This document shows positions 7,316-58,594 of a stretch of DNA of 64,000 nt, piece after piece. The notes beneath the pieces were generated by a model, which had not been told where the DNA came from, did no database searches, and saw nothing but the letters and a program-made list of their open reading frames with translations. The stretch is from Octopus vulgaris (taxonomy: Eukaryota): NCBI GenBank assembly GCA_951406725.2, contig OX597814.1:57908001-57972000 (forward strand). The letters are read 5' to 3'. Position 1 is the stretch's first letter, and each line of letters opens with the position of its first letter. Both the position numbers and the translations under genes were made by a program.

Positions 7316-7460
7316 GTGGTCGACTTTCCCTTTCATCCTTTCGGGGTCCATAAATTAAGTACCAGTTACGCACTGGGGTCGATGTAATCGACTTAATACC
7401 TATGTCTGTCCTTGTTTGTCCTCTCTGTGTTTAGCCCCTTGTGGGTAATAAAGAAATTAG
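7316..7460 (+). mobile_element. SINE family A 3' half
   Basis: Core plus tgtcctctctgtgtttagcccc tail, also present at 53540-53600 on the minus strand. Confidence 0.75.
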
Positions 7461-7581: not shown

Positions 7582-7931
7582 CAGTAATCCCTCGCCTATC
7601 GCGATTTATTATTTGAGCTTACAAAGGCGGCTAGCTGGCAGAAACGTTAGCGTGGGGTCGGTAAAATAAGTACCAGTTAAACACTGGGGTTGATGTAATC
7701 AACTTACCCTCTCCCCCCAAATTTCAGGCCTTGTGCCTACAGTAGAAAGGACTATTTAAGCTTACGTTGATTCCTCTGTGGTATTGTTTTGAATTTATGA
7801 TAAAATAAATATATGCAAATTATAAAAATAAAAAAAATAAAAATACAGTACAGTATTGTTTCTACTTCGTGGATTTTCACATATCGCAGGGATTTGGGGG
7901 CATATCGCCCGCGATAGTTGAGGGATTACTA
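7582..7931. mobile_element. Tc1/pogo-type MITE with a nested SINE A fragment (about 7625-7752)
   Basis: Terminal inverted repeats cagtaatccctcgcctatcgcg / cgcgatagttgagggattact in a TA context. Confidence 0.7.
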
Positions 7932-8206
7932 TATTCCTTTGGTCCACGGAAGCAATTTAAGTAATCTTGGATGTTATTATGAGAGCAATCAAACTTTTCG
8001 AGTATGAAGGAGCTACAAGTAGATACAATTATGAAAATATATCTTTTACTGTCACACATTTTTGTCATACATTGAAAGACAAGTTAGCAGAGTTGTTTGA
8101 GAATCTAACAGAATGACTTGATTCTATACTTGAGAGATGAGGAATTATGTATATTATTCACATTATTTACATTTGACGGACATTTGTCTCCATCTTTTTT
8201 GTTGTC

Positions 8207-8252
8207 AACACAATGTTTCAGCTGATATACTCTTCAGCCTTCATCAGGTGTC
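8207..8252 (-). ncRNA. Hammerhead ribozyme motif, family H1 (stem III altered)
   Basis: GACAC-CUGAUGA-A-GGCUGA..UCAGCU-GAAA-CAUU-GUGUU. Confidence 0.65.
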
Positions 8253-8300
8253 CTGGGGCAATTTGGAACCTGGGTTCTCATTCCTAAGGTAATTTTTCGA

Positions 8301-8368
<68 letters not shown>

Positions 8369-8474
8369 TCACCGTCTGGAATAACATCAGGACAGTATCC
8401 AAGAATAATACAACACTTCGCAAATATATACTTCGTGTAAACCACCAATAGAAGAGAATATAACCAAATACAAC

Positions 8475-8780
8475 TCGTATTCCATTCCATGCAGCTGTGG
8501 TAGGTTATACAAAGGCGAAACTTGCCGCCACCTCAAAATAAGGGTAGAGGAATATCCCAAAGCTGTGACATGGGGAGATATTGATGAATCAGGTATAGCT
8601 GATCATGTATGGAAAAATAGAGACCACCTCCCCCTGTCAGATGAAGTTAAAATAGTAGACAGAGAACACCACTGGAAAATACGAAAACTAAAAGAGGCAG
8701 CACATGTGCTGGGACCTCCTAAGCAGACCTAGTGCAGATATGAGTATTATATGGGAACTGGTATTAAGGAAGTATAGGAA
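8475..8780 (+). pseudogene. Penelope-type GIY-YIG endonuclease fragment
   Basis: Manual translation: SYSIPCSCGRLYKGETCRHLKIRVEEY...SGIADHVWKNRDH...VKIVDREHHWKIRKLKEAAH. Confidence 0.85.
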
Positions 8781-8827
8781 AATATTAGATTTATAAACCC
8801 AAAAATTCACTCCATATTTGCCCACTG

Positions 8828-8895
8828 CTATATGGTATAGTGTTTGAGAGCACGAGTACTAACCCCGAGATTGCGAGTTCTATTTCAGGCTGTGA
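8828..8895 (+). promoter_or_regulatory. tRNA-like segment (Pol III A/B boxes) inside the PLE 3' region
   Basis: tggtatagtgtttgag...gagttctatttc; the sister copy at 18567-18588 (-) has the B box GAGTTCGACTCC. Confidence 0.55.
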
Positions 8896-8966
8896 CCTGA
8901 GTAACAATAATAATAACATCAGAAGAAAACCTTAGGAATGGGAATCCGGGTTCGAAATTCCCGCTG

Positions 8967-9012
8967 GACACCTGATGAAGGCTGGAGAGTACATCAGCCG
9001 AAACGATGTGTT
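8967..9012 (+). ncRNA. Hammerhead ribozyme motif, family H1 (cleavage triplet mutated)
   Basis: GACAC-CUGAUGA-A-GGCUG..CAGCC-GAAA-CGAU-GUGUU. Confidence 0.65.
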
Positions 9013-10631
9013 AACAACAAACAAGATGAGACAAACACTATCCGTCAAATGTAAAGAATGACTTGAGTTATAAAGTTCTTTTATTTCCGAGTTCAAATTC
9101 AAACGAAATTAGCCTTTACTCAATCATCGTTCTGGGGTTGATAAGGAAAGTTCTAGTCAAGGACTGCAAATTCTGGGAACCGTTAGGATGCTGGAATATA
9201 TGTTCTCATATTTATTGTTATTTTTTGTATTTTGAGTTAAATTTTCCCCGTGGCCTATTTCGGCGTAGACCTAATCCGTCGCTCGATTTAACAACAATAC
9301 TTAACAGCTTAGATGCTTTATGGATACTTTCCTCCTTCCTTCCATAAGTTAAAGATGTTCATTAGTGGCTGTTCTGCCACTTGTCTAATCGAGTAAATAA
9401 ACATATTTTGCATAGCCCCACTTTTGATTCTTCTTTTTCCAGGCAAGTTAGTTTCAAGTCTCATTACAATCTTACATTCTGTTATTTATTTCTGCATTTT
9501 ATTTTATTTAAGTTTTCCTTTCTGTATGTTTAAATTTCTGTAAAAGTTTGCAATTTGTTTTAATTATCACACGTAAGGAATATAATGGTTATGTTTTAAA
9601 GGCTATTGAAATATTCATTAGCTGTCAGCTTAGTGATTACTAGTCTTAAGGAGATGACAATAGTTGTTCGTTTAGTTTAGTCTGCTCTTCAGTTACACTC
9701 GTGGCGTTATTCTATTCATTTGATTGTCTCCAGATTGAAATACGTCACTTTAGATAAATTGAAAATTGGCTAGTGACTGTCAGTAGTTAAATAAAATAAA
9801 ATGAGTAATAAACCATCGCTATGCTATTTAATTTAGTATTAACGTATTTTATGTAGCTGTATTAAGATCTAATTGGTAAAAATTATGCGGTGAGGATAAA
9901 ACAATATTAGTTGATGATTAACATAATTTTAATTGATCGGGTGTTATTATGACCTTCATGAATGAAACATACGTTTTACTATACATGCCAAAGTACTGAT
10001 GACATAATTACTAAATCGTAAACTGAATCATATTTCTAGAGTACAATGACTCACTAATCGCTCCCTCCACTAGTATAGGGAAATCTATACTTCGTTGATA
10101 AGGTCAGAATACAACTAAAACATACCATAAGTTATCTCGTGTTTGCTGAAATAACCATTATATTATTAGTACATACAAGCGGTGTAGAATTTTAATTAGG
10201 TGGAACGAGAAGGGCGATAAGGTATTGGCCTATTAGCTCACTAATATTGAATTTATATTCACTGGAAGAGTTTAGTAAACTTTCAGAAAAAGAAACCGAA
10301 CTTTAGATGCGTGAATTCAGAACAATAGCATCGCTTAATTCTAGATAACTATGCTACAATTGTAACGAAGGAAGGGATTCAATAGAGTGATCTAACAAAC
10401 AAAGCTGTCTTAGAAATATATTAGAGAGCTGTGCTTCCCTATAGTAATATTTACTGCTAAATAGGCGTAAAAGATTATAATATTTTGTCAGCGCTTGTAC
10501 ATCTACACAAGAAAGAAAATTCTAATTTCATGTTCTGTGACTGATATAGTTATAAGTCAGAATAGTTATAAGCAAAGAAAAAGTGTTTGCTTACAATTAA
10601 CATCTGTTATTAAGCTGTGAGATACTGTGTG

Positions 10632-17745: not shown

Positions 17746-18360
17746 CTTCCTTCTTTCTTTGCTTTCCTGAGCATCCAATAACACTATACTTGTTCCACGT
17801 CCTCTAGTCATCACATACTTTTGTTTATTGCAATAAAGTTGATTTACAGCTGTTTCCGGTAGTTATTATAGGCAAGATCTTGATAAGTTTACTCAAATGG
17901 TCCATTCATTGAGAGAGATCGAACAACCAAGAAAGTTAATGCCACTTTCGTCATACACACACATACACATGAAATATGATGATGATGATGAAGAGGAGGA
18001 TTGCCTCATCTTGTCAAATGATAGCCGTCTCACATTCAACCTGATTGTTCTAATTTACTTTTATCCTTGAATGTGCGTGGATATTTATTACGACAGAACT
18101 TTGTGGAATACAAAAGAGCTCAAGAATTGAAATGACTGCGACACATCTGTACGTCGATGGATTTCAATGACAAAGCTCGTACAACAATTTTGTATTTCTT
18201 TCGGTCACCCTAGAAGCTTCCAGTGACAAGCATTGTAAGATGAACAGGTACAATTTTGAGTAGAAGTTTTATACAGTTCTATATTTAAGAGATGAGGAAT
18301 TATGTACATTATTTACATTATTTACAATTGACGATATTTGTCCTCATCATATTTGTTGCT

Positions 18361-18406
18361 AACACAACGTTTCGGCCGATATACCCTCCAGCCTTCATCA
18401 GGTGTT
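18361..18406 (-). ncRNA. Minimal type I hammerhead ribozyme, family H1, intact core
   Basis: AACAC-CUGAUGA-A-GGCUG..CGGCC-GAAA-CGUU-GUGUU; palindromic ACGU stem III. Confidence 0.75.
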
Positions 18407-18452
18407 TTGAGGAAATTTCGAACATGGTTTCTCATTCCTAAGGTATATTCGA

Positions 18453-18546
<94 letters not shown>

Positions 18547-18621
18547 AATATCATTCAGGTCCCTGCTTGGAGTCGAACTCGGAATCTCCGATTCAAAGCA
18601 GTGACCTGAATAATAATAATG

Positions 18622-18676
<55 letters not shown>

Positions 18677-18689
18677 TAAAAATAAAAAA

Positions 18690-21600
18690 AAACACCGGGG
18701 ACGTGAGGAACACCGCGGACGTTTAAGATGTGAGAACGATAAAACAGAGTTCCGAAATCTATCCACAAACATCGAAAACAAAGACATCGTATGAAGCCAA
18801 AAATTTACTAACAAAGGATTGGACTATATCCGAGTAAGTAATACTCATTGAAATTATTACTATTTTCGAAACGAAATGATTTTAACTCGATATCATCTCC
18901 ACCTCTAACACAACACATGTAAACATGCGTGATACATTACGATCCATCAACACCAGATCATCCCCGACCCCAAACACCATGTACAAAAAAACTACGAAGA
19001 AATTAAATAACTCCGATATTATTCAACCCAAGAATAACAATCGGGAAGTACGTACTTTAAACTTACAACACAAAATGTACGAAAAACTACACGTGCAAAA
19101 CAATGAGACAACAGAAATGAACGGACCGGTACCCTACGAAAATGACGACCGTCAAAATAATGGGCCGGACGTTGTTCCTCATGTCCTGCAAATAAAACTC
19201 AAAAGACATAAATGGACACGTGAGGAATACATTTCTATCCTACACGCTTACTTCACAGCAGTGCTCTACCCAAAAAATGAAAACACAACAACACATACAT
19301 ATAAAATATGGAAGGAAAATAACATAAATATAGACTTGGATACAGCAATGAACCCTAATAAACTAGCTAACGTACGAAGATACATTCTCAACGCAAAAAA
19401 AATATCAGAAATAGAAATAGAACATCTAAAAGAAAAAATACATCAGGAAAATGTAGATAGAAGCCACACAACAATGCCCAACAATATAAACACTGAAACA
19501 GTAAAACACGAAGACAAACGTAACATTCCCAACAAACACGATGTAAACAAAAAACAACAAACCCAGACCGTAAGGATGCATAATAATACACGACAAACAG
19601 CAAGCCAAAACACGACAAACAAAAATACAAATGAGAACGAAAGCGATACAAATCTAAAACCTAGAAACAACGAAGGGGAGCCTAATGATTATGATAATAT
19701 AAAAAGTAGAATAATCAAAGAACTAAAAACCACAGAGCTCAAAATGGACCACCGACCATACCTCCCAAAAATCAAAATAGACGAAACAACAACACCAATT
19801 ATAAACAGCATATACCTAGCCGTCGCGGAACTAATAGCCACTGAAACAAAAAGCGATATCACTGAGCTAAATGACTTAGTATACGCAGCAGCCACTGCGC
19901 CACAAAAGAAGCTGGATACTCACTCAAACCCATCCAAACAGGAGTACCACCACCCAAACAAACCCTGTGGATAAATAACATCCAAAACAAAATACAAAAA
20001 TTAAGAAAAGATCTGTCGATTCTTAATGAAATCAGTAGACAATCAACGCTACTGAGCAACAAAAAGAAAACAAAAATACTCCGCAAATATAACACCACAG
20101 AAAAAGATTTACCTGAGATAAAAGAAAAGCTGAAGCAAGATATCCTTGCCAAAGCACAAAGGATCCGCCAGTACGAGAAACGCCAGCGCTTCTTTGAACA
20201 AAACAAAAAGTTCAACTCCAACCCCAAAAAGTTGTACCAAGAACTTGGCAAAAATAAAATAGAAATCACTGCAGCACCAACGGCAGAAGAAGTGGAAGAA
20301 TTCTGGAGAGAAATATGGTCGGCGAAAGAACAACCAAAAATAAAAGGAGTATTAAAACAACAAACTCAGCATCTGAGCAACTTTGGACCCCATAACAACT
20401 GAAGAGGTCACCCAGGCACTGCAAAGACTAAGCAACTGGAAGGCACCTGGGCATGACAAGATCCCCAACTTCTGGTTGAAATATCTAACAGGAATGCACA
20501 AAAAGCTGGCTGAAAACTTTAACAACATACTAGCAGAGCCAGAGACAATGCCTGAATGGCTCACGAAGGGGAAAACGATCTTAATTCCCAAATCAAATGA
20601 GACAGCAAAACCAGAAAACTACAGACCAATAACCTGTCTCCCTACAATGTACAAGGCATTTACTGCAGTGATATCGCAAAGGTTGAACAAGCACCTGGAC
20701 GAAAACAACCTGTTTCCAGAAGAGCAGAAAGGATGCCGCAAAGGCTCATATGGCTGTAAAGATCAACTAATGATTAATAAAGCCATAACTGAAGACAGCC
20801 ACAGAAAGAAGAAAGGCCTCAGTATGGCCTGGATCGACTCCAAAAAGGCGTTTGATAGCATCCCCCACACATGGATCCTCGAAACACTAGCCATTAACAA
20901 AGTAGCACCAACAATTATAAAATTCATAGGACACTCTATGAATAAATGGCAAACAGTGCTACAGCTCCAAACAAAAGAGGGACTCATGAAAACCAAAGCC
21001 ACCCTCATTAGAAGAGGAATATTCCAGGGAGACACGCTCTCTCCACTCCTTTTCTACTTGGCACTGTCACCTCTATCTGATATGCTAAATAGAACTGGAT
21101 GCGGATATAAATGTTACGGCAAAACGATCAGCCACCTTTTATATATGGATGACCTAAAACTATACGCTGCAAATGACAAACAGCTGGAAACACTATTAAA
21201 GACAGTTCATGGATTTACCAAAGAAATAGATATGAAATTTGGATTAGAAAAATGTGCCAAAGTAACCCTGAAAAGAGGAAAACTAGTTAAGAGTAGATAA
21301 AACCAATGAAATAAAAGAATTAGACCAAAGCCAAACTTACAAATACTTAGGAATCCATGAATTCGATAAGACACAACACACACAAATGAAAGAGAAAATA
21401 AAAAAAGAATATTATAGACGAGTTAATTCAATACTAAAAACAGAGCTCAATGCTAAAAACAAGATAATATGTGTTAACACTTTAGCTGTCGCAGTTATAA
21501 GTTACAGCTACAATATCCTTAACTGGACACTAAATGAACTGACCAAAATAGATAGGAAAACAAGAAAAATAATGACAGGATCTAGGATGCATCACCCAAA

Positions 21601-22790
21601 ATCTGACATAGAAAGACTATATATACAACGTATAGAAGGTGGTAGAGGCCTTATACAGCTGGAAAACTACTATAAAATAACCAACATAGGACTGCAAAAA
21701 TATCTACTTCAGAAGGAAGGAAAACTTATACAAATAGCCACAAAACACGAGCAAAACAAAAAGCTGTTCTCAGTATTTAAGGAAGCTGACAAATACAAAC
21801 AAGAAATCATACCACCTAATAAATATGAAGAAGAAGGAGAAGATGAAGAAACAACAAAAGCTATAAAGCAAATGAAATCCAAACTAAAACTAGAACAGCA
21901 AAGAACCATGATAAAACGATGGCAAGAAAAGCCCCTTCATGGTAAATACTGGACTAAACTAAACGCAAAAGAAATAGACAAAGAAAAATCCCAGCAATGG
22001 TTGAGAAGCTCAGGACTCAAAGCAGAGACAGAGGGATTTTTTAATTGCAGCACAAGACCAAAGCCTCCCCACCAGAAATTACCAAAAACATGTAATGAAA
22101 AGAAATATAACAAGTAACTGCAGAATATGTGGAGATGGACAAGAAACAATAAATCATATTATCTCTAGCTGCCCAGTCCTGGCTAAGAAGGAATATATTC
22201 ACAGACATGACAGAGTTGGAACCTACATACACTGGAAGCTATGCCAACATTATGGAATAACAACAGAAAAAAGATGGTATAGGCACACACCAGAAAAGGT
22301 CACAGAAAACGAGACAGCAACCATACTCTGGGATATGCCGATACACACAGATAGATAAATTAAGGCCAACAGACTAGATATAGTTGTCAGAGATCATGAA
22401 GAAAAAAATGCTTTCTAATTGATGTATCAATACCGGCTGATGACAACGTGTCTCTAAAAGAAATGGAGAAACTCTCAAAATACAAAGACCTGGAAATAGA
22501 GGTAACCAGAATGTGGAATCTAAAAACAAAAACAATTCCTATCATAGTAGGTGCATTAGGCATGATAAAAAAATATTCAGATAAATACATAACAAAAACA
22601 CCAGGACTTACAAACACATATAACATACAGAAAATTGCACTACTTGGCACTGCACACATTCTACGCAGAACACTTTCCATACAATAACCATCAGAGCATC
22701 ACAACAAATCACAGCACATACCCAAGGCACACAGAGCTGCACTCGGTAGTGAAGTGAAAGCACGCTAAAAAAATAAAACTACTGAATGAT
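18690..22790 (+). mobile_element. R4/Dong-like non-LTR retrotransposon (RT plus C-terminal restriction-like endonuclease), near full length
   Basis: Single long broken ORF, short 3' UTR, (TAA)n on both sides. Confidence 0.9.
18925..22687 (+). pseudogene. Disrupted RT-RLE polyprotein
   Basis: WKAPGHD, YRPITCL, QGDTLSPLLF, YMDD, GGRGL, CRIC..ETINHIISSC, RHD, K..KY. Breaks near 19897, 20330-20380, 21298, 22040, 22356 and 22405. Confidence 0.92.
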
Positions 22791-22797
22791 AATAATG

Positions 22798-22872
<75 letters not shown>

Positions 22873-22934
22873 GCAATTATAATAACATCGAAAAATACCT
22901 TAGGAATGAGAACCGAGGTTCGAAATGTCCCCAA

Positions 22935-22980
22935 GACACCTGCTGAAGCCTGGAGTGTATATCAGCCGAAACGTTGAGTT
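22935..22980 (+). ncRNA. Hammerhead family H1, degenerate copy
   Basis: GACAC-CUGCUGA-A-GCCUG..CAGCC-GAAA-CGUU-GAGUU. Confidence 0.55.
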
Positions 22981-23573
22981 AGCAACAAAGATGGAAACAA
23001 ATATCCGTCAATTGTAAATAATGTAAAAGTTTCATGTCTTTGTCCCAGATGAGCTGCATTCGCCACGGGTATCTCCTTTTTTATTGGAAAATCTGTGTAA
23101 CCCATAGATGGGTGTTTGATGCGGATCAGAATGAGCATCAGAGTAACGATATTTAAGGGGTGATCCCACACTCCTACAACTCTAGAACTCTCGAACTGGA
23201 GCCTCACCACCGGATGCAGTTTATATATATATATATAATGATGAAAGGACTACGTGTTATGGTATCAAAATTTCAAATTAGTTACAACAGTTTCGATAAC
23301 TGGTGGAATTATCACATCAATCAATATGCCGGCATCATACGTAGAAAAATATAGACGTTATATAAAGCTTCTGTAAATCCATGCGATATTGAATGAAAGT
23401 TTTATCTCATCTCGTTTCGATTTATCCCCTGCGATAGATACGTTGCGCTTATAACGGATACATTTCCGTTTTTTTTTTTTAGTTTATATACATTTTGAAA
23501 TTAACTGTCATTCGGATTTTGCATGGAATGTTGACTGAAGTATTCAACTGTATGCCTTCCTCTTACTACTGAC

Positions 23574-39777: not shown

Positions 39778-40117
39778 TATACATTATTTACATTATTTAC
39801 AATTGACGGACATTTCTCCTGATCTTTCGTTGGGGTTTTTTAGATCTACACAGAAAAAAGAACCAAGATGAGGACAAATGTCCGTTAATTGTTAAAATTG
39901 TAAATAATGTGCATAATTCTTCATCTCTTAAATATAGAAGTGTATTTTCTAATCGGTACGGAGTCAACATTAGAATTCAATAGAGCCATACAGAAACTCC
40001 ATAAAAATCCAAGCTCATCTTTCAAACCATATAACCGTGATGAGGACAAATATCCGTCAATTGTAAATAAGGTAAATAATGTACATAATTTCTCATCTCT
40101 TAAATATAGAACTGTAA
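39778..40117. mobile_element. H1-family PLE terminal pieces: one inverted, two tandem
   Basis: gatgaggacaaat..ccgt..attgtaaataa..catctcttaaatatagaa at 39867-39940 and 40039-40112; reverse copy at 39778-39825. Confidence 0.75.
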
Positions 40118-57017: not shown

Positions 57018-57810
57018 CTATCTATATGGTATATTTATATTTGACATTTTAAATTTGGTTGCGTGTCTACATAAGTTCATCAGCTCACTTCTTTGATTCA
57101 AAGAATTATTGTCTTTGAATAAAATATACAGTTTCTCTAATAGTCAAAGATTGCACTTAAAATTATTCCTGTGTGCTCTATGCCTGTATGGTGCCGCTCT
57201 GTCCAGAATGCTCCATGTCACGTTGAAAGGTGGGGTTTCCTTTTCTTTTAGTTCCCAGGCATATTTTGCTAGGCTGGTCCTCTTCCTATTCTCTGGGTAT
57301 CTAAATGAATTTTTATGCGAATAAAATCGTGTTTTAAACGAATTTTCTGAAGCCCCTGTATATGTCTTGTATTCCGATGAGCCTTCTATTTGTACCTTGG
57401 CTCTATAAACTACTCCTTTTACTAGACATTTCCCTTCTAACGGACAGGAGGTTTCATTTTTGCAATTGCATTTCTTAATGGGCTCGGCACCATGTTTAAT
57501 CTCAATCAGATTCCTATTATGCTGGCTAATGTAAGGGGCGAAATTTCTGCAACAAGAATAGCTAACCTTCAGGGTTCTTCTATTAAATACCCTATAGAAT
57601 TTATGGCCCTGCTTAAAATGCTTAGAGACTAATCTCAAAAATTCCTTACCTATATTAGTCTTTACGGCCAAATTGAAAGCCGGGTTGAACCACAAAACTT
57701 TCCTGGTCCTAGTTCTTCGTGCAGCATTATTATCAGCATTAAGCTGGCTGTATTGGATCTTCTCAGAGAATCCACTATTCTTTAATGCGCTATCGTACAG
57801 AGAAATATGA
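57018..57810 (-). pseudogene. Penelope-like ORF C-terminus (linker plus GIY-YIG endonuclease), one in-frame stop
   Basis: WFNPAFNLAVKTNIGKEF..CNC..CPLEGKCL..GVVY..YTG..FKTRF..H..CNL*LLEKLYI..LNQRSELMNLCRH. Confidence 0.92.
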
Positions 57811-58594
57811 AAGAAAAAAATACTTTGATTTTTAATTTATAGATGATCCAAAATAGGGTGTTATATTTTATATGTCTTTCGTATATTTTTCATTATTACA
57901 CTCACCATTTTTTAAAAAGGGCAATGTTGTCAAAAATTAGAATTTTGATGTAAATATGTGTATAGCCATGGATATGTATTTGTAAGCATGCGTCTCTGTG
58001 TATGTGTAAGTGAGCGTATGTTTGTGCTTAAGGCACACACATACACGACTGTATGTGTATGTATCCATTTGAACTTGTGTGTCTATATACTTGTCTCTAT
58101 ATAAATGTCAATAACGTGGTTACACAGCTTGAATACATAATTTTTCTTATTTCGTTTTTTCCCACTCCTCCTTTTTCTTTTTTCCTTCCCCCTTCTTCGT
58201 TTCTTTCGTTTTTTCTCTAACTATATGATACTGGTGCATACAACTTTACGTCCCCCTCACTTACTTATGTCTTAAGCTTTGCTCCGTAAATAAGGAACGC
58301 TACATTAGCATCCATGATTTTAACTTGTGTGCGAGATAGATTGCGTATACATATGTGTGCATGCATTTGTGTGTATATTTTAGATTTATATTTATACATC
58401 TGTATATGTATGGCGTTTGCACGCATCCTTCTGTGTATGTTGATATATATATGTACACTTTAATATGAATATGTATTGCAGTGTAATATTTATAATGCAT
58501 TTTAATTTCCATGTATTAATTATATTTCCTTCTTTAACGTCAATATGTATTTTGTTCAATGTAAGGTTTTTCCTCGAATTTTATAATTTTCATA

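Follow-up and report, generated by a model that had tools for sequence, protein, structure and literature searches.

Among the Penelope-like elements (PLEs) described so far, PAc of Anolis carolinensis offers itself as the closest comparison. It has just one open reading frame (ORF) for a reverse transcriptase (RT) with a C-terminal GIY-YIG domain, a pseudo-long terminal repeat (pLTR) and a hammerhead ribozyme that overlaps the ORF start; its RT starts at two sites, which yields a tail of about 30 nucleotides (nt), and its insertions are 5'-truncated and head-to-head (PMC11167929, PMC8557442). All these features recur in a family of Octopus vulgaris, one copy of which lies at 8121-9060 of a 64,000-nt stretch of contig OX597814.1 (assembly GCA_951406725.2, positions 57,908,001 to 57,972,000, forward strand), here called the window. 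Unlike PAc, the octopus pLTR opens with a tRNA-derived head containing an A and a B box, which is followed by (TAA)n, and its sense strand is devoid of runs of four T (T4). The octopus family is a real, unusual variant of a known element.

Related designs are known from other elements. The minimal type I hammerheads of metazoan PLEs share with the octopus one the conserved core, the unpaired base after A9, a palindromic 2-nt stem III and the occurrence as thousands of dispersed single motifs (PMC4209133); the cleavage triplet of the octopus family, however, ends in U. Sm-alpha of Schistosoma also combines a promoter of the RNA polymerase III (Pol III) type with a hammerhead within one small unit, but is non-coding, tandem and equipped with an active hammerhead (PMC6765202), whereas in the octopus family a coding element has the unit as its end repeat. 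In the TRIMp3 elements Cassandra, Helenus and Ajax, a Pol III promoter derived from a small RNA resides in the terminal repeat, its boxes being kept and the tRNA function lost. In contrast to the octopus family, they are non-autonomous long terminal repeat elements of less than 1.3 kb, and their autonomous partners have been argued to require RNA polymerase II (Pol II) (PMC10886601). Non-LTR retrozymes, finally, are non-coding, pLTR-derived hammerhead units carried by PLEs (PMC7761336, bioRxiv 10.64898/2026.07.22.740005). They form tandem arrays, whereas most of the short octopus copies are single or head-to-head and not tandem units bounded by hammerhead cuts. In the available text of the retrozyme preprint (bioRxiv 10.64898/2026.07.22.740005) the terms "tRNA", "Pol III" and "promoter" do not occur. 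In the accessible literature searched, no paper was found that describes a PLE with a promoter of the Pol III or tRNA type; Repbase, subscription journals and supplements, including the repeat library of PMC13282606, are outside this scope and could hold the family.

We propose, with a probability of about 0.58, that Pol III would transcribe the entire octopus element and that RT, starting at the first of its "tail" sites, would make the short copies. The sequence features that suggest Pol III are the position at which copies start, the two promoter boxes and a depletion of terminators. To appreciate them, the family has to be defined. The genome searched comprises 2.8 Gb in 227 contigs. When the copies were extended, their sequence closed circularly into a unit of about 2.64 kb. 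"Unit" positions refer to this family consensus, while offsets such as -6 or +7 take the first base of the tRNA-like head as zero. The unit begins with the head (1-75) and (TAA)n, continues with an ATG at 109, the hammerhead within the ORF and a tail end at 263, then with the bulk of the RT and GIY-YIG ORF, its stop at about 2606 and a 29-nt untranslated region (UTR), after which the head is met again. The consensus slips twice, close to unit 680 and to unit 920; both slips stem from the alignment, and neither hides a T run.

The ORF matches RVT_1 (E 2e-10), and its GIY-YIG part, which finds no match in Pfam, was assigned by motif and homology. Its homologues are 39 full-length PLE proteins of 30-55% identity, the Anolis protein at 35% among them; in the best one, P0001, the hammerhead peptide recurs close to the start. 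The order RT-then-GIY-YIG, the direct or inverted pLTRs with a one-sided tail of 30-40 nt (one tail end and one short end in 37/50 arm pairs) and the hammerhead in the pLTR are those of the Penelope/Poseidon group, of which the element is a member. The full succession of pLTR, ORF and head is seen in one copy, L332. The family is old, its non-CpG divergence being 4-5%.

The tRNA-like head is abundant. An exact 18-mer of it has 5,660 matches in the genome and its control none, so that the head occurs far beyond chance. For comparison, an exact 36-mer of the hammerhead matches 1,539 times, an 18-mer about 60 nt upstream of the head 999 times and one at the ORF start 85 times; per base, the head 18-mer and the one about 60 nt upstream are conserved alike. 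Judged by score, 27 of 30 loci picked by the upstream 18-mer have the head behind the ORF end, the three misses carrying partial heads, and so do 25 of 30 picked by the GIY-YIG protein. Inspection by eye raises the number from 52 to 55 of the 60 ORF-selected copies. Because it follows the ORF end in most of these loci, the head belongs to the Penelope element as a fixed component, the beginning of its own pLTR, and is not a SINE (short interspersed nuclear element) added to it. A one-off SINE insertion, which the number of matches and the regular position behind the ORF exclude, was rejected.

The closest tRNA is a genomic tRNA-Arg(TCG) with 49/74 identities, the best of 25 distinct tRNAs sampled, which do not cover all isotypes. 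The consensus head has perfect A and B boxes; its acceptor, D, anticodon and T stems pair at 5/7, 3/4, 3/5 and 3/5 positions, respectively, and ARAGORN calls no tRNA in it. With a tRNA head and both boxes at its 5' end, the unit looks like a tRNA-derived SINE. The original prediction, made from the window alone, had seen in the 3' end of a Penelope copy a tRNA-like promoter that might drive a self-processing, SINE-like unit. As to the promoter-like head it was right: the block is fixed in the family, and both boxes persist in the consensus.

Copies begin at the head, as had also been anticipated. The sample consisted of 90 arms among the first 100 listed head matches, taken in position order; in a few instances a locus is present in duplicate or both arms of an insertion are counted. 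Of the 78 arms that reach +7, 56 stop at -8..+7, nine at -9..-20, mostly as fold-backs, and 13 run further. Expressed per nt at risk, ends amount to 0.071 at -8..0 and 0.031 at +1..+7; farther into the head the value is 0.006-0.008, and upstream of -20 it is about 0.002. Loci selected by the hammerhead give the same cluster. Direct template-jump junctions that reach the head start (n=10) begin at -6 in five cases, one of them judged by eye, often after a few A; starts at -5, -4, -1, +6 and -183 occur once each. The base concerned, G-6, has a pyrimidine in front of it and the A box 13 nt behind it, just as expected for a Pol III start. Where a copy joins head and ORF start (n=12), it begins at -7..+7 in eight cases, within the head in two and upstream in two, and the full-length copy L332 begins at -2. 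ORF-bearing copies therefore start at the same place as short ones, and the view of the head as an addition to the tail end has to be abandoned.

The third argument is the scarcity of terminators. The sense strand of the unit contains no T4 in 2,638 nt. Permutation of the element's own codons predicts 2.9 (P=0.03), and looser nulls predict 4.5-4.7 (P about 0.005). If the weak terminator types of PMC3141230 are included, 3 sites stand against 10.1 expected (P=0.002), a ratio of 0.30. A search for other Poseidon families in the genome returned only this one (30/30 loci); the controls were therefore drawn from 79 metagenome loci, supplemented by other ORFs in the fetched loci. The 79 related PLE ORFs from other organisms display no such loss (T4 434 versus 378 expected; with weak sites 1,192 versus 1,122), their lowest single ratio being 0.53, and none of them has an A and B box pair within 700 nt downstream. 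In 37 mixed ORFs of the fetched loci, many of which are not real genes, T4 amounts to 101 versus 89. The relative with the lowest ratio (5 versus 9.5) is L377, a related PLE ORF with 48% identity to P0001. Having a tRNA-type promoter and no T4 over its whole length, the octopus element was likely read by Pol III, the usual products of which are small RNAs.

The first weak terminator in the unit is TCT3 at 339-343. Among 74 ORF-start fragments at risk, 22 end at unit 328-347 (about 20 after collapse of duplicates), i.e., 0.015 ends per nt as opposed to 0.006-0.007 on either side. These ends fit a short terminated RNA, but trimming back to a protein footprint as well.

The following sequence of events may be envisaged. 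Pol III would start at G-6 and read through the ORF into the next repeat. RT would then start at one of the internal tail sites, the first or the second, as has been shown in vitro for the anole element. In PAc the main one of the two internal sites is found within the ORF at +111-118 nt, and a template has to reach as far as +172 (PMC11167929); the octopus tail ends +112 from hammerhead stem II, which matches the PAc start. Starting at the first tail would generate the abundant copy of about 270 nt, which consists of head, spacer, hammerhead and tail, and starting at the second one would generate 5'-truncated ORF copies such as 8381-9060. Two cDNAs would be joined head-to-head. The weak TCT3 may release an RNA of about 345 nt that still holds the protein-binding region. 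The protein itself could be supplied by translation of the uncapped RNA or by Pol II read-through of a master copy. A more far-reaching scenario, which we advance tentatively and at somewhat less than even odds, has the element capture a tRNA gene as promoter and purge Pol III terminators from its 2.5-kb ORF; Pol III would have made both template and mRNA, and a weak terminator past the RT start would have allowed a SINE-like short RNA to emerge from the same promoter.

Several observations weigh against transcription of the whole element by Pol III with short copies made at the first tail. The case for Pol III is built on sequence features. Three RNA-seq runs of 2026 gave, on two family copies, near-equal depth in both directions and no pile-up at start or end; 55-88% of the reads run on into unlike flanks, and the runs speak neither for nor against Pol III. 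A dinucleotide (first-order Markov) model expects just 2.5 T4, for which zero has only P=0.085. A consensus was compared with single relatives, which biases toward a cleaner result, and the decayed single copies, with T4 26 versus 69, are not independent. Two of the copies joining head and ORF start, L543 and L601, continue beyond the head on its upstream side. An intact ORF did not turn up among the best 150 and the best 58 protein matches. The template rules are borrowed from PAc, a relative of about 35% identity. RNA made by Pol III is uncapped, and its translation needs a special route. Also the short arms differ from the long ones: they are slightly younger (4.1% versus 5.2% non-CpG divergence), their spacers are longer (median 40 versus 26 nt, P=0.003), and both boxes survive in them more often (33/97 versus 10/75), a difference due mostly to CpG decay. 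These differences in age, spacer and boxes fit some separate amplification of short copies.

The last point leads to the idea that Pol III makes short RNAs only, starting from the head. These would propagate themselves as a SINE-like lineage with the help of the Penelope machinery, and the mRNA for the ORF would be a product of Pol II. Short copies do outnumber ORF-end copies by about 5:1, and short units of head plus ORF start that end at 335-428 (L583, L599, L615, L616) could be their non-coding masters. Yet this lineage has no bases of its own: between 90 long and 111 short arms four positions differ at P<0.01, two of them CpG sites, and none is diagnostic. The short unit is the pLTR of the autonomous element over its entire length, and both kinds of copies share one consensus. 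Moreover, 350/352 arms end at or before the tail and lack the roughly 60 nt beyond it that a PAc template needs (PMC11167929); by analogy they would therefore be poor templates. The common start site of ORF-bearing copies and the T-run loss across the ORF, which a short transcript leaves unexplained, add to our view that such a lineage is unlikely. Nor do the copy ends speak for self-processing by the hammerhead. The consensus folds as a minimal type I hammerhead, but its cut site is not a hot spot of 5' ends, 2/49 arm starts being within 4 nt; the cut as definer of copy ends was rejected on these grounds. In PAc, likewise, insertion does not depend on cleavage (PMC11167929). Monomers of minimal hammerheads were reported without cleavage (PMC4209133), which further weakens the idea. 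The separate, self-processing SINE of the original prediction is probably wrong, and the thousands of short copies are probably by-products and not a separate SINE. Only a few tandem mini-units, of unit 97-333 and 99-384 (L610, L612-L614, L618), were observed besides; they comprise hammerhead, tail and ORF start without a head, look retrozyme-like and are partly amplified locally on one contig (C29).

Would an ordinary Pol II promoter in the pLTR, starting at the same place, not do as well, the tRNA piece being a passive relic? Known PLEs have their start site and an internal promoter in the pLTR (PMC8557442), the pile-up marks a start site irrespective of the polymerase, and a capped RNA would solve the translation problem. 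The start, however, lies where Pol III would put it, 13 nt before the A box; the boxes are perfect and the stems broken, and the terminator motifs are depleted in comparison with 79 relatives. We thus give little credence to Pol II. About equally improbable is that the pile-up is an artefact within a longer RNA, be it that a palindrome at the head start stops RT or folds it back, or that RNase P cuts at tRNA +1. The UTR indeed ends with an imperfect inverted copy of the head start, and 8/9 ends at -7 score as fold-back-like, but many ends at -6..+7 join flank DNA or the hammerhead-side arm without fold-back, and direct tandem junctions begin at -6 without an inverted arm. A cut by RNase P does not agree with 31 ends at -7..-2 versus 8 at 0, nor with broken T and acceptor stems. 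Transcription of the whole element by Pol III accordingly remains our preferred reading.

The copy from which the analysis started, 8121-9060, is a broken copy of this common protein-coding Penelope element (Table 1). It is a single head-to-head insertion made of a minus arm, running from 8382 to 8122, and a plus arm, 8381-9060; the span described originally thus contains a second, inverted arm, in the hammerhead of which the fold reveals two core or stem changes. The parts that had been recognised in the plus arm, i.e., the GIY-YIG remnant, the tRNA-like block with its two boxes, (TAA)n and the hammerhead, are all there, although both boxes are decayed. According to its translation, the ORF remnant has stops and a frameshift and terminates with the stop codon 8794-8796; Pfam has no match for its 92-residue piece. 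The final 17 nt of the UTR repeat the head start in inverted and degenerate form, and the G-6 of this copy would be near 8820. The hammerhead, a minimal type I motif within the ORF start, has lost U16.1, as judged from the fold. ARAGORN calls no tRNA anywhere in the window, and Rfam finds neither tRNA nor hammerhead within 8000-9200. The ORF/head junction at 8809-8840 (unit -17..+13) is imperfectly palindromic and may be the fossil of a fold-back end that arose when the tRNA was captured. Directly upstream of the hammerhead, at 8930-8960 (unit 101-135), there is a short hairpin with a second B-box-like motif, which also looks like a degenerate hammerhead core.

Table 1. Parts of the Penelope family found in the window (window coordinates)
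Feature	Position	Strand	Details
Inverted arm	8122-8382	-	final 18 nt of head, (TAA)n, hammerhead, full tail; blastn to family unit 58-260
Penelope ORF 3' end, GIY-YIG region, 5'-truncated	8381-8796	+	90% to unit 2184-2637 of the family consensus
3' UTR, 29 nt	8797-8825	+	from consensus and junction ends
tRNA-derived head	8826-8899	+	A box 8833-8843, B box 8875-8886
(TAA)n spacer, short in this copy	8900-8917	+	from sequence
Remaining pLTR	8918-9060	+	in-frame ATG at 8938; hammerhead 8967-9012; terminates at short, tail-less end
Sister insertion, minus arm	18271-18587	-	3' half of head with B box 18569-18580, spacer, intact hammerhead core, tail
Sister insertion, plus arm	18589-23025	+	end of head 18589-18608, (TAA)n interrupted by a LINE, hammerhead, short end
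Headless fragment	39783-40116		inverted tail piece 39783-39826; unit 185-357 at 39855-40035; second tail 40039-40116

Two further places in the window had been listed as ORF-less copies, and both have another explanation. At 18276-23026 a long interspersed nuclear element (LINE) of 4.1 kb that encodes an RT (PF00078, E 7e-31; about 18693-22780, plus strand) splits the (TAA)n of the plus arm, so that this insertion is not ORF-less. The clean B box reported for this sister copy exists, but it is on the minus strand, in an arm that has the 3' half of the head and no A box. In the hammerhead of the plus arm A6 is changed. The fragment at 39778-40117 has neither head nor hammerhead core and consists of tail, ORF start and tail, the unit 185-357 piece representing tail plus ORF start.

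The RT-encoding LINE at 18693-22780 is near-complete, has frameshifts and matches RVT_1 and zf-RVT; we take it to resemble the R4/Dong clade, and the clade label as well as its presumed preference for TAA are assumptions of ours. At least three other LINE families have landed repeatedly in the (TAA)n spacer, where they part the head from the hammerhead (L032, L035, L050, L107, L115, L118, L122, L132, L139, L336). Elsewhere in the window, 7318-7450 and 7640-7750 are copies of another abundant short repeat that is present in many flanks. An open frame of 230 residues on the minus strand, at about 57146-57836, contains a motif that we presume to be that of Neptune-type Penelope elements; its 6 T4 runs agree with the 5.7 expected.

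To our knowledge, autonomous retrotransposons are taken to be Pol II transcripts, in the case of R2 Pol I transcripts, and Pol III promoters are ascribed to short non-coding passengers. If our reading is true, a 2.6-kb coding element driven by Pol III would depart from this rule and provide a natural example of an uncapped Pol III RNA that is translated. It would also offer a simple route to SINE-like families, which would require a tRNA promoter in the pLTR and RT initiation at the first tail. Thousands of such copies would then be labelled SINEs by repeat annotation.
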